Positions 1,696-3,946 of a stretch of DNA of 43,501 bases are shown piece by piece; positions within the stretch are counted from its first letter, which is position 1; each line of letters starts with the position of its first letter. The translations under genes and the position numbers were made by a program. The notes beneath the pieces were generated by a model. That model had not been told where the DNA came from. It was given only the letters and a program-made list of their open reading frames with translations, and made no database searches. The DNA lies in IMG/VR virus record IMGVR_UViG_3300008050_000097. One strand, given 5' to 3'. The DNA comes from a virus.

Positions 1696-2067
1696 ATGAG
1701 CAACAGCGCGCTATTGTTCAACCATTGTTTTGTATGTAGTAAGATGCCATCTTGCACGCTCGTCGCAGAGCAGCCTGTCTGTAAGCGGTGTTGGGCGTGG
1801 GGTGTTTCAATGGGGGAAGTTTCTGGTGAATTTGAGCCAGAACTCTATAGAGGGTCGCCAGCATTGAATTTGTATTCATGCACTGACCACCTAGGTTTGT
1901 TTCCAACAGGTATTGCGTCGATTGTACTTGCGTCTTCTAAGAAAGAAGCACGCTCAATTCTGGATAAAGAATTGAAGAAGTACAGTCTTTATAGCCCAGA
2001 CTATACATTGAAGTTGATCACAGCTGATCAACCTAAGGCAATTGTGCTCTGTGACGGAGACTACTGA
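1696..2067 (+). CDS. hypothetical Zn-ribbon protein
   Basis: N-terminal CxxC...CxxC pairs; first gene of 4-gene overlapping operon. Confidence 0.5.
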   Translation: MSNSALLFNHCFVCSKMPSCTLVAEQPVCKRCWAWGVSMGEVSGEFEPELYRGSPALNLYSCTDHLGLFPTGIASIVLASSKKEARSILDKELKKYSLYSPDYTLKLITADQPKAIVLCDGDY

Positions 2068-3042
2068 ATGGTGAATAAAACAATTGTGCGGATTGTGCAT
2101 GGCTCTCAACTGTATGGCACAAACATTCCATCGTCTGATCTTGACCTTAAGGGAGTCTTTTTCCCAACATTTCGTGAAATGGCTCTCAATCCGAAGCGTT
2201 CTGTTAAGCGTAATGTGAAAGGGACAGCTAGAATCCAGCCTGGTGAACTTGATATGGAGCTCTTTGAGCTTGGAAAGTTCATTGCGCTAGCGCTTGATTC
2301 CCAAACAATGGCTCTTGAGATGTTGTGGGCCCCAGCTGATAAGGTACTTGAAACATCACAACACTGGGAATATCTTGTTGGCACTCGTGAAGAGTTTCTA
2401 AGCAGAGGAATGGAATCGATTGCAGGTTACTGTAAGTCACAGGCCAATAAGTACTGTGTGAAGGGTGCCAGATTTGACGCCATTGTTGAGGCAATCTCAT
2501 TTCTCACAGAATTTGATGGAGAGATGCGAATCAATGAATTCGCATCTGATCCGGCCAACCTAGAGCAGATGGCTGACGTGACTGAACCATACTTCGATAT
2601 TGTAGACATGAGTCATGGAGACGGCAGGTTTCAAGACAAAGCGATTGTAATCAGCAGCCGATATCTCCCCTTCAGCACTACAGTTGAATACAGCCTAGGC
2701 GTTCTTCGAAGCGTTGAAAAAGCTTATGGCAAGCGCACCCGGGCAAGTGCTGGAGGCCAAGATTGGAAAGCACTGATGCATGCCTACAGGGTTGCCGACC
2801 AGGGAATTGAACTTGCGAACACAGCAAATCTTACACTCCCCAGGCCAAATGCTGAGCTGCTTCTCCAAATCAGAAAAGGCGAGCTTCCGTTTGATGAAGT
2901 TGCAGAGATGATCGATGAGCGCCTGAGTGAGCTTGAATATGCAATGACAGCCAGTTCTCTTCCTGCATCGCCAAACAGGCAAGATATCTTTGATCGTGCC
3001 GAGTCGATGTATTTGGAGCACTTTAGGGGAATGCTGAAATGA
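2068..3042 (+). CDS. Pol-beta superfamily nucleotidyltransferase (RlaP/PF10127-like, RNA-repair associated)
   Basis: Motif VHGSQLYGTNIPSSDLDLKGVF = G[SG]-x9-13-DxD NTase signature; 324 aa with C-terminal helical domain; ATGA overlap with upstream gene. Confidence 0.6.
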   Translation: MVNKTIVRIVHGSQLYGTNIPSSDLDLKGVFFPTFREMALNPKRSVKRNVKGTARIQPGELDMELFELGKFIALALDSQTMALEMLWAPADKVLETSQHWEYLVGTREEFLSRGMESIAGYCKSQANKYCVKGARFDAIVEAISFLTEFDGEMRINEFASDPANLEQMADVTEPYFDIVDMSHGDGRFQDKAIVISSRYLPFSTTVEYSLGVLRSVEKAYGKRTRASAGGQDWKALMHAYRVADQGIELANTANLTLPRPNAELLLQIRKGELPFDEVAEMIDERLSELEYAMTASSLPASPNRQDIFDRAESMYLEHFRGMLK

Positions 3043-3632
3043 ACTATCAGGTTAAAGTCGCAGAACCACGTAATACAATCTTAGTTGATGTAGATTGCGT
3101 TTGCGCAGATCTTTATGACGCAATTGCTCTTGAGGCCGCGCTACTTGGATATCCGTTCTCAATGATACGCAGTTATGACGTTCTTAGCCAGTATAATGAA
3201 GATGTGCAAGCAGATCTTCGCGCTGCCATGAAGGAGCCGGGGTTTGCGACAGGGATGAATCCTGTTCATGGAGCGCAAGATGGTGTGAAAGCGCTTCGTA
3301 TGCTGGGGTTGCACGTTCTGTTTGTAACGTCACCGCAAAAGAATGATCATTGGCCAATTGAGCGTATTCATTGGCTGCAGCGCCATTTTGGTGCAAAGTA
3401 TAGTGACGTTATCAATAGTAAGCACAAGAATCTTATTCGCGGCTTGACGCTTATTGATGATCATCCTGATCACGTTGTTAGTTGGTCTCTTGCAAATAGT
3501 GGAAGAGCTGCCATCTGGTATGACGCAGGTTGGACAACCCAACCAATGGTTACTGGTGCTGTGACGCCCAGGGCTGCAAATTGGTCTGACGTAACAGCAG
3601 CAGTTGAGCGAATGCTTAAGAAGCGTGCATGA
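3039..3632 (+). CDS. HAD-family 5'(3')-deoxyribonucleotidase-like protein
   Basis: N-terminal ILVDVDCV (DxDxV) and later LIDDHPD motifs typical of HAD nucleotidases (NT5C-like); ATGA overlap with neighbours. Confidence 0.55.
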   Translation: MNYQVKVAEPRNTILVDVDCVCADLYDAIALEAALLGYPFSMIRSYDVLSQYNEDVQADLRAAMKEPGFATGMNPVHGAQDGVKALRMLGLHVLFVTSPQKNDHWPIERIHWLQRHFGAKYSDVINSKHKNLIRGLTLIDDHPDHVVSWSLANSGRAAIWYDAGWTTQPMVTGAVTPRAANWSDVTAAVERMLKKRA

Positions 3633-3946
3633 GCAAGTTTTTCACGTATATCGTTGATGCCGACGGCACTTACTACACAGGTTGGACAACAGATCTCGAA
3701 CGAAGACTGCGGCAGCACAACGGTTTAATCGCTGGCGGAGCGAAGTACACGCGCGGAAAAGCCTGCAAGCTGATGTGGGCCCAAGAATTGTCTTCACGCT
3801 CTTCAGCAATGAAGTATGAAGCAGCGATCAAGCGTCTTACACACACAGATAAGAAGCTCATTGTTGCAAGCACGCTTTTCGGCATGTCACACTTCATTGA
3901 AAAAGTAAACGAAGCAATCAATAAACCAAGAAAAATGGAGTGCTGA
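3629..3946 (+). CDS. GIY-YIG domain nuclease (small, YhbQ/UPF0213-like)
   Basis: FFTYIV...YYTGWTTDLERRLRQHN = GIY-YIG core; 105 aa. Confidence 0.65.
   Translation: MSKFFTYIVDADGTYYTGWTTDLERRLRQHNGLIAGGAKYTRGKACKLMWAQELSSRSSAMKYEAAIKRLTHTDKKLIVASTLFGMSHFIEKVNEAINKPRKMEC

Follow-up and report, generated by a model that had tools for sequence, protein, structure and literature searches.

The four genes singled out by an initial annotation of this viral DNA (IMG/VR record IMGVR_UViG_3300008050_000097; the window is the whole analyzed stretch of 43,501 nucleotides) are neither a signaling system nor a fixed four-gene unit, and the neighbors of the nucleotidyltransferase (NTase) among them are mostly lineage-specific. 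The NTase is an ordinary phage RNA-repair nucleotidyltransferase of the Pol-beta type, belonging to the T4 NrdC.11/RlaP family, and by analogy with characterized members its substrate would be RNA. The explanation that best accounts for the locus as a whole, to which we assign a probability of about 55%, is that the segment is part of a co-directional block of accessory genes in an uncultured tailed phage of ~175 kb, in which the RNA-repair NTase has a HAD phosphatase as its pathway partner, and a GIY-YIG protein and the small protein ORF1 are lineage-specific passengers, linked to the HAD and the NTase, respectively, only in this phage lineage. Family memberships, intact catalytic motifs, gene context, a deletion variant and neighborhood statistics are directly observed. 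A candidate "new signaling operon" is thereby removed, and the NTase is assigned to an RNA-repair family that is known and has recently been characterized.

Layout of the Locus and Gene Junctions

The closely spaced unit comprises five genes on the plus strand. It begins with ORF85 (1422..1679, 85 aa), whose end lies 16 nt from ORF1 (1696-2067, 123 aa, with a Cys-rich N-terminus), and continues with the RlaP/NrdC.11-type NTase (2068-3042, 324 aa), a HAD phosphatase of the NT5C family (3039-3632, 197 aa), and a UPF0213/SLX1-like GIY-YIG nuclease domain (3629-3946, 105 aa). The five genes are set off on either side by intergenic stretches of 334 nt (1088-1421) and 175 nt (3947-4121), and no convincing candidate for a promoter or terminator was found at the unit. 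The four plus-strand reading frames of the initial annotation, from ORF1 to the GIY-YIG gene, were all confirmed at these coordinates. Its description of every junction as an ATGA/TGATG overlap held for two of the three, since ATGA joins the NTase to the HAD gene (3039-3042) and the HAD to the GIY-YIG gene (3629-3632), but ORF1 and the NTase abut with zero overlap (TGAATG, 2065-2070). The TGATG at 3944-3948 starts merely a 21-codon ORF.

Same-strand tight packing, in which two junctions are ATGA overlaps and the third an abutment, would suit a single RNA/DNA end-processing pathway, the second option of the initial annotation. Cleavage by the GIY-YIG protein would be followed by dephosphorylation by the HAD and extension by the NTase, and targeting would fall to the Zn-ribbon protein. 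The three enzymatic chemistries can be placed in such an order, and RlaP requires a 3'-OH end. However, junctions of 4 nt or less were present at 16 of the 36 same-strand pairs among the gene calls of the parent contig (there were 5 ATGA overlaps), and further runs of three tight junctions are present close by. Such junctions are therefore the norm throughout this genome and tight packing is not special to this locus, and, together with the deletion variant and the neighborhood surveys described below, this makes a single four-gene pathway very unlikely. Among 50,697 phage records, blastn found no match to the region.

The NTase Belongs to the RlaP/NrdC.11 Family

The NTase matched the RlaP family (PF10127) with 46.9 bits and an E-value of 3.7e-12 (cutoff 23), matched phrog_388 over its full length (1.5e-69), and scored 2e-90 with an HMM made from 80 viral homologues. 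It is a homologue of the annotated NrdC.11, and its catalytic residues, G12, S13, D24, D26, and D62, are intact and invariant in alignments of nine and of six sequences. With PF10127, phrog_388, and the motif in agreement, the initial call of an RlaP-like Pol-beta NTase carrying GS...DxD was right, and its hedge toward "RNA/DNA end-modification" pointed in the correct direction for the NTase, whose family is one of RNA repair. Features shared with T4 NrdC.11/RlaP include full-length homology, at 31-37% identity, with the NrdC.11-type proteins of 1666 phage records, the GS...DxD...D catalytic set, and a conserved C-terminal helical domain. The nearest relative outside its own phage is ~33% identical, and a single-protein scan of IMG/VR gave no close relatives. 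Searches with phmmer and with a profile against PDB sequences found no match to the NTase, Foldseek against the PDB returned nothing significant, and NCBIfam and PADLOC gave no match to any of the locus proteins.

The RlaP family was reportedly defined by Burroughs and Aravind in 2016. Within PF10127, T4 NrdC.11 is placed in cluster 5, and the RlaP of Pseudomonas, the only one for which this activity is known, adds 1-2 NMPs onto an RNA 3'-OH, 3'-phosphorylated RNA being no substrate (PMC12776372). The characterized RlaPs belong to cluster 1a, distant from the NrdC.11-type cluster 5, which counts against carrying over the substrate. In large phages the occurrence of RlaP parallels that of RNA ligase (PMC7824862), and T4 nrdC.11 can be deleted in the laboratory (PMC9825161).

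The locus had also been considered a possible site of second-messenger synthesis and degradation. In such a system, or a counter-system, the NTase would produce a CBASS-like or HalB-like signal, with signal breakdown or effector function falling to the HAD and GIY-YIG proteins. We regard this as extremely improbable. Neither in sequence nor in fold does the NTase resemble CD-NTase or Mab21 proteins, so that an identity as a CBASS-like cyclase was rejected, and no effector or Cap genes are adjacent; its neighbors are the NT5C-type HAD, the UPF0213 GIY-YIG protein, and small ORFs of no assigned function, none of which is matched by PADLOC models.

A CCA-adding enzyme was likewise rejected, the only Pfam match of the NTase being RlaP, with no PolyA_pol head domain or CCA family and no NCBIfam match. 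Thirteen of the 15 tRNA genes of the phage encode their own CCA. The initial annotation had named a housekeeping family for the NTase and a lack of synteny elsewhere as results that would speak against its proposal; the foursome is indeed not syntenic elsewhere, but the NTase belongs to an RNA-repair family and not to the housekeeping CCA enzymes.

A Dispersed RNA-repair Toolkit in the Same Phage

The genome that carries this NTase also has genes for Rnl1-type ligases, a kinase, and phosphoesterases. A Rnl1-like ligase gene lies 6.5 kb upstream of the NTase (L004, 2231-3475), and a second ligase, RNA_lig_T4_1, is encoded 23 kb downstream on the minus strand (26284-27498). The minus strand also carries genes for an AAA_33 kinase (P-loop, polynucleotide-kinase-like; 27467-28033) and a HAD_SAK_2 protein (24958-25608; 6e-27). 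Metallophos genes are found at 21111-21968 and, on the minus strand, at 29864-30694, an HD gene at 18905-19483, and the phage has 15 tRNA genes in all. Because of this company of ligases, kinase, HAD_SAK_2, HD, metallophosphoesterases, and tRNA genes, the NTase fits a dispersed toolkit for tRNA repair, spread through one stretch of 50 kb. The window and its flank hold the same enzymatic repertoire as T4 Pnkp plus Rnl1 and the "Swiss Army Knife" sets of large phages, namely a kinase, a HAD phosphatase, a metallophosphoesterase, an HD protein, Rnl1-like ligases, an NTase, and a tRNA bank. Unlike those systems, the components here are neither fused nor in one operon, being scattered across about 35 kb on both strands, the NTase lies outside any ligase operon, and among the four genes of the locus it is the sole canonical member of a "Swiss Army Knife" set.

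In the proposed mechanism, in which we infer the RNA that is acted on, the sequence of reactions, and what the HAD does, host anticodon nucleases would cut tRNA with the loss of a nucleotide, and the NTase, if it behaves as Pseudomonas RlaP does, would add one or two NMPs to the RNA 3'-OH without a template, restoring what was lost. The phage's own Rnl1-type ligases would then seal the ends. The HAD would most probably serve as the phosphomonoesterase partner of the NTase, either making 3'-OH ends or clearing 3'- or 5'-phosphorylated nucleotides.

A Natural Deletion Variant and Synteny Separate the Four Genes

In L015, a diverged relative, ORF85, ORF1, and 85% of the NTase gene are deleted, but the HAD and GIY-YIG genes remain intact as an overlapping pair, with the GIY-YIG ortholog directly after the HAD. 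This natural deletion shows that the phage lineage can do without the NTase, and since L015 keeps the HAD after loss of the NTase, the HAD must have some value alone. The neighborhoods of other NTases were no more supportive of a common unit. Among 160 other NrdC.11-type loci (80 viral and 80 from genome assemblies), the GIY-YIG gene was present in none, the ORF1 domain was missing from all, and an NT5C-type HAD adjoined the NTase in one. When loci were instead collected around relatives of the HAD, no adjoining NTase was found in ~48 (32 viral and 16 metagenomic), and ~46 of the 48 were without the NTase; at one locus, L133, the NTase lies 3.6 kb from the HAD relative. The claim of a single functional module, for which tight overlaps had been the argument, does not survive these results, as L015 splits the set and the foursome was not found in the 160 NTase loci. 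The same variant largely refutes the single end-processing pathway.

The deletion also bears on the possibility that two independent units happen to be adjacent, with ORF85, ORF1, and the NTase forming an RNA-repair accessory and the HAD and GIY-YIG proteins a DNA or nucleotide-pool unit, in which the GIY-YIG protein would degrade DNA and the HAD, as a 5'(3')-deoxynucleotidase, would dephosphorylate the resulting dNMPs or otherwise adjust dNMP pools. L015 retains exactly the HAD and GIY-YIG pair after the three upstream genes are gone, and most phage relatives of the HAD have no NTase nearby, as this division would predict. However, the pairing is confined to this lineage, with a UPF0213 GIY-YIG gene in 0 of the 32 viral and 0 of the 16 metagenomic HAD-relative loci, and overlap of an NTase with an NT5C-type HAD recurs in an unrelated phage (L075) without any GIY-YIG gene. 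We therefore consider the two-unit arrangement a serious but doubtful alternative to an NTase with the HAD as its partner.

Phosphoesterase Genes Adjoin NrdC.11-type NTases

A phosphoesterase gene of the HD, Metallophos, HAD_SAK_2, Pnkp, or NT5C family was adjacent to the NTase on the same strand in 19 of the 80 viral loci (11 of 44 lineages). The density of these genes was 0.266 per kb within 500 nt of the NTase and 0.021 per kb at 3.5-8 kb, so that adjacency to the five families is ~13 times background for NrdC.11-type NTases, a value that comes from related loci that are not phylogenetically independent and is somewhat inflated, because genes located near NTases had served to build the family HMMs. 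The pattern recurred in 80 genome-assembly loci, where the adjacent genes were HD in 6, Metallophos in 2, and Pnkp in 5. An RNA ligase lay within 3.5 kb of the NTase in 10 of the 80 viral loci. This linkage accords with the 3'-OH end that RlaP requires, and the HAD of our locus may therefore fill the slot of the phosphoesterase partner. The locus differs from other NrdC.11 loci in that the downstream partner, usually HD, Metallophos, HAD_SAK_2, or Pnkp, is here an NT5C-type HAD. The five-family linkage suggests which partner to pair with T4 NrdC.11.

Two further loci resemble the present one. In L075, the NTase is followed by an NT5C-type HAD gene with a 14-nt overlap (35% identity to our NTase and 35% to our HAD), and these two genes and a 143-aa ORF form an isolated same-strand trio. 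In L133, genes for an NTase, Pnkp, and an NT5C-type HAD all lie within 5 kb. These cases raise the rather improbable idea that a capped NT5C-type HAD has been recruited as a dedicated RlaP/NrdC.11 phosphoesterase in a minority of phages (here, in L075, and perhaps in L133), with possible roles in making the 3'-OH for RlaP or in hydrolyzing an excised or mis-added nucleotide. If true, RNA repair would have a component not described before, and a first way into the function of T4 NrdC.11-type enzymes would be at hand.

The HAD Phosphatase Is an NT5C-family Protein

The initial label of the HAD as 5'-nucleotidase-like was correct, and its family is NT5C (PF06941; 49.1 bits, cutoff 24.8, 8.2e-13, profile positions 2-172 of 180). 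Alignment shows motifs I-IV to be intact (D17xD19, T97-S98, K128/K130, and D140-D141), and the protein also matches phrog_2643, annotated as a "5'-3' deoxyribonucleotidase." Structures of human mdN/cdN (4mum, 6g2n, and 1mh9) were matched at ~1e-7, cap region included, with residues 22-90 aligning with the mdN cap, which suggests that motifs I and II are separated by a C1 cap. The phage protein therefore shares a full-length match, all four HAD motifs, and the aligned cap region with the mammalian enzymes, but it is only ~25% identical to them, does not conserve their base-recognition residues, and overlaps an RNA-repair NTase translationally. The base-stacking residues F75 and W76 of mdN correspond to Y46 and D47 in the alignment and are not conserved, so the specificity of the HAD may differ from dNMP. 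For the two-unit arrangement these data cut both ways, since the best solved relatives of the HAD, with cap aligned, are dNMP-specific, as phrog_2643 would also suggest, but the residues that stack the base are replaced. The sole close homologue is P0009 on L015 (61% identity), and an alignment-based scan of genome contigs for the HAD found nothing.

Capped HADs normally take small molecules and not polynucleotide ends, and the aligned cap region accordingly counts against the HAD as an end-healing partner. The phage already has candidate end-healers in HAD_SAK_2, HD, and Metallophos, and 159 of the 160 other NTase loci are without an NT5C-type HAD, which likewise weigh against that role.

The GIY-YIG Protein Is a Stand-alone Domain

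The initial GIY-YIG nuclease call was borne out by a match to PF01541 (48.2 bits, cutoff 22.6, 1.4e-12). Among solved structures, the UPF0213 proteins 1zg2 (1.7e-11) and 1ywl (5.8e-11) matched best, SLX1 being a weak match, and residues Y7, Y16, R26, H30, and E64 are conserved in the alignment to 1zg2. Judged from its sequence, the protein is a stand-alone UPF0213/SLX1-like domain without a DNA-binding extension. It resembles UPF0213 (BH0048, EF2693) and SLX1-type proteins in its ~100-aa single domain, its catalytic Y, Y, R, H, and E, and its ~40% identity to solved UPF0213 members, and differs from UPF0213 proteins in being phage-borne, in having a C-terminal tail of 25 aa, and in its lack of a partner domain. 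A homing endonuclease of the I-TevI type was rejected, as the protein has just 105 aa and no extra domain, and its identical position in L015 counts against a mobile insertion. A literature search for the function of YhbQ/UPF0213 found none; the family has no known substrate, which also tells against assigning the protein to a DNA-degrading pool unit.

ORF85 and ORF1

ORF85 matches phrog_20898 (6.4e-7), a family without assigned function, and has no homologue among the 80 viral NTase loci. ORF1 is preceded by a Shine-Dalgarno sequence (AGGAG) 6 nt ahead of its ATG, and gave zero matches in Pfam, PHROG, NCBIfam, and PADLOC. The earlier description of ORF1 as a Zn-ribbon protein stands as far as the Cys-rich N-terminus is concerned (C11, C14, C20, C29, and C32, in the pattern C11-x2-C14...C29-x2-C32 with C20 between), and the ribbon itself is a possible one, read from the CxxC pattern without a family match. 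No homologues of the N-terminus were found, and AF2 prediction from the single sequence gave an uninformative model (pLDDT 40). In XM05, Cr30, and GAP161, ORFs of ~120-130 aa run into the start of the NTase gene; they were rejected as homologues of ORF1, those of XM05 and Cr30 having no homology by BLASTP and all three, GAP161 included, being negative by domain HMM. For residues 56-123, over 150 cluster representatives align with an identity of 35-53%, and by this alignment the C-terminal ~68 aa belong to a widespread, uncharacterized family of small proteins. The relatives of this domain occur in varied genomic contexts, none with an NTase, which is further at odds with a single pathway, and some of them also bear Cys-rich N-terminal extensions, unrelated to that of ORF1.

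Gene Organization at the Locus

The four plus-strand ORFs described in the initial annotation are genuine according to the ORF list, and comprise ORF1 (1696-2067, 123 aa) and the NTase (2068-3042, 324 aa), HAD (3039-3632, 197 aa) and GIY-YIG (3629-3946, 105 aa) genes. All of their junctions had been described as ATGA or TGATG overlaps, and reading of the DNA confirmed ATGA at two of the three internal junctions (3039 and 3629), but ORF1 and the NTase gene abut (TGAATG), and the TGATG at 3944-3948 opens a 21-codon ORF and nothing more. Upstream, 16 nt separate ORF1 from a further gene, ORF85 (1422-1679), which brings the closely spaced unit to five genes; stretches of 334 nt and 175 nt without genes flank it, and a consensus scan revealed no convincing promoter or terminator for it. 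Tight packing is not distinctive in this genome: by the gene calls on the parent contig, 16 of 36 same-strand junctions are ≤4 nt and 5 of 36 are ATGA overlaps, and further runs of three tight junctions are found nearby.

The Four Genes Are a Lineage-Specific Juxtaposition

The proposal that the four genes constitute a single functional module did not survive comparison with other loci. The only close homologue of the HAD protein (P0009, 61% identity) is encoded on contig L015, a diverged relative that is collinear with the sequence preceding the four genes. Immediately after the homologue of a 200-aa ORF (window 485-1087), L015 carries a C-terminal NTase fragment of 49 codons (residues 276-324, 51% identity). 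This remnant is picked up independently by the NTase family HMM, and it still ends in an ATGA overlap with an intact HAD gene, with an intact GIY-YIG gene next. L015 has thus lost about 1.86 kb (window ∼1031-2895), removing ORF85, ORF1 and 85% of the NTase gene. The site therefore held the NTase ancestrally, the NTase is dispensable, HAD and GIY-YIG persist without it, and HAD has a value independent of the NTase. Similarity to the window phage stops shortly past the GIY-YIG gene (L015 4892-6126), and tblastx gave no match on L015 to the window’s 85-aa, 110-aa or MVP-like genes, so HAD and GIY-YIG lie where a conserved block ends. The main competing explanation is that these two retained genes make up a unit of their own acting on DNA or nucleotide pools, which we consider possible but rather unlikely; GIY-YIG was absent from 32 viral and 16 metagenomic loci containing HAD relatives.

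Conserved co-occurrence of the four genes in other phage genomes was not found among 160 NTase loci and these 48 HAD-relative loci. Neither the 80 IMG/VR loci nor the 80 loci from genome assemblies that carry an NrdC.11-type NTase contained the UPF0213 GIY-YIG, the ORF1 domain or ORF85, and the neighbors were unrelated around the nearest NTase homologue (P0002) and in the annotated phages XM05, Cr30 and GAP161. Phage database matches numbered 3 for HAD and 25 for GIY-YIG, with no NTase nearby in the three contexts inspected, and homologues of the ORF1 domain were located in varied phage-like contexts lacking an NTase. The “operon” is a lineage-specific juxtaposition, and participation of all four enzymes in one concerted pathway, despite their close spacing here, is improbable.

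Properties of the Encoded Proteins

The NTase matches PF10127 RlaP (46.9 bits, cutoff 23) and phrog_388 (1.5e-69), and tblastn detected full-length homologues, annotated as similar to NrdC.11, in 1666 phage records (31-35% identity; predominantly T4-like phages). Family alignments show no variation at G12, S13, D24, D26 and D62, or at a set of C-terminal positions. Judged by sequence, the protein is a divergent addition to the RlaP/NrdC.11 group, sharing about 33% identity with the closest relative and having an unusual neighbor; a role of such NTases in phage RNA repair has already been described. No PADLOC model matches any of the five proteins (the four gene products and ORF85). The initial annotation’s alternative of a second-messenger system is highly improbable.

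The HAD protein gave a full-length match to NT5C (8.2e-13, profile 2-172 of 180), retains all four HAD motifs, and aligns with human mdN and cdN, including the cap region. The GIY-YIG protein is a stand-alone domain of UPF0213/SLX1 type, matching 1zg2 and 1ywl at about 1e-11, with catalytic residues that align with such relatives. Its closest phage relative (47% identity) is in Rhizobium phage RHph_Y65 (L012 3986-4246), where a HAD_SAK_2-like gene annotated as hypothetical (4812-5402) lies about 570 nt downstream; this second GIY-YIG/HAD proximity may be coincidental.

ORF1 had no family match in Pfam, PHROG or NCBIfam, and a word-indexed search returned nothing beyond ORF1 itself. However, an exhaustive HMMER search placed residues 56-123 in a widespread family of ∼68-aa proteins, with >150 representatives matching at 35-53% identity and no relative in Pfam, PHROG or PDB. 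The domain region (window 1852-2067, residues 53-123; family P0010-P0158) has the signature xCTDHxGxxPVGxASVVVA...EA..LL...L...GL...[FY]TL.E....P.A..L.DG[DN]Y, and the proteins are mostly stand-alone, sometimes repeated or fused to Cys-rich N-termini, in phage-like contexts. The suggestion that ORF1 is a Zn-ribbon protein was left without a family match or a usable AF2 model (pLDDT 40), but its C11-x2-C14...C29-x2-C32 pattern stands, and gains some credibility from the Cys-rich N-terminal extensions on several family members.

NTases Often Adjoin Phosphoesterases of Five Families

One partial linkage survives, the pairing of NTase and HAD. At L075, the gene for an NTase 35% identical to ours shares 14 nt with that for an NT5C-type HAD (Pfam 5e-15) that is the closest viral relative of the window HAD (35% identical), and the two genes form with a 143-aa ORF an isolated same-strand trio between opposite-strand genes. 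The L133 locus carries three genes inside 5 kb, for an NTase, a Pnkp and an NT5C-HAD. As a broader pattern, genes from five phosphoesterase families (HD, metallophosphoesterase, HAD_SAK_2, Pnkp and NT5C) flank NrdC.11-type NTases; one adjoins the NTase in the same orientation in 19 of 80 viral loci, or 11 of 44 lineages defined at 60% NTase identity. Phosphoesterase density in the viral set was 0.266 per kb within 500 nt, compared to 0.021 per kb at 3.5-8 kb, a contrast qualified by the phylogenetic relatedness of the loci and by the seeding of the HMMs from genes near NTases. The 80 genome-assembly loci gave the same pattern (adjacent HD in 6, Metallophos in 2, Pnkp in 5). NT5C occupied the phosphoesterase slot in only 1 of the 160 other loci.

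Ribotoxins leave 3′-phosphate or 2′,3′-cyclic phosphate ends, as is known from anticodon nucleases and T4 Pnkp. PF10127 owes the name RlaP to its association with RNA ligases, and RlaP enzymes from Pseudomonas, two of which have been characterized, extend RNA 3′-OH ends by one or two NMPs; they act preferentially on mimics of broken tRNA and do not accept 3′-phosphorylated RNA (PMC12776372). T4 NrdC.11 belongs to cluster 5 of the family (PMC12776372), and in large phages RlaP distribution mirrors that of RNA ligases (PMC7824862). Since RlaP rejects the ends that ribotoxins leave, adjacency of interchangeable phosphoesterase families is what would be expected of an end-healing partner. We propose that the NTase is an RlaP-type RNA 3′-end extender, part of a dispersed tRNA-repair toolkit of the phage, that would put back the nucleotide removed by excising anticodon nucleases ahead of Rnl1-type ligation, with the overlapped HAD probably acting as a phosphomonoesterase in the same pathway. 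Given its mdN-like cap, a mononucleotide seems at least as likely a HAD substrate as an RNA end. The neighborhood rule and this rare NT5C variant could guide experiments on T4 NrdC.11.

RNA-Repair Genes Surround the NTase

An identical NTase is present on metagenomic contigs reaching 175-179 kb, indicating that the source is a large uncultured phage. RNA-repair genes are unusually abundant in the window and the sequence just upstream of it. An Rnl1-like ligase gene lies 6.5 kb upstream of the NTase, just outside the window (2231-3475 of the parent contig, L004), and 15 predicted plus-strand tRNA genes with interspersed small ORFs occupy 10266-20357, 13 of them encoding 3′-CCA; the first two, Leu-gag (10266-10341) and Gln (10347-10418), lack CCA and look atypical. 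Among the tRNA genes, 16 kb from the NTase, is a plus-strand HD_4 phosphohydrolase gene (18905-19483), whose family occurs immediately beside NrdC.11-type NTases at 8 viral loci and at 6 from genome assemblies. A metallophosphoesterase gene follows at 21111-21968. On the minus strand, 24958-30694 forms a compact RNA-repair cluster of HAD_SAK_2 (24958-25608, 6e-27), a second RNA_lig_T4_1 (Rnl1-like) ligase (26284-27498), an overlapping AAA_33 polynucleotide-kinase-like gene (27467-28033) and a metallophosphoesterase (29864-30694).

Other Genes in the Window

The plus-strand gene at 4716-7358 encodes an 880-aa protein matching the Major Vault Protein shoulder (9.7e-22), as well as Vault_3, Vault repeat and SPFH/Band_7. 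A tblastn search of 50,697 phage records detected relatives (37-39% identity) in just 3, each of them an uncultured huge phage (462-735 kb); the protein is unusual for a ∼175-kb phage, and is possibly of greater interest than the four-gene locus. Inside the tRNA region are a 75-aa plus-strand ORF (∼11431-11658; L004 19364-19591) with a precomputed Pfam match to PF27542 ArfC, and a plus-strand gene for a 478-aa protein (16563-17999) with matches below gathering scores to ATP-dependent DNA ligase adenylation (2e-4) and C-terminal (1e-4) domains. Coding switches from the plus to the minus strand at ∼24800-25000, coincident with the cumulative GC skew maximum, and the minus-strand gene at 38017-38622 encodes a SprT-like metalloprotease-domain protein (5e-12).
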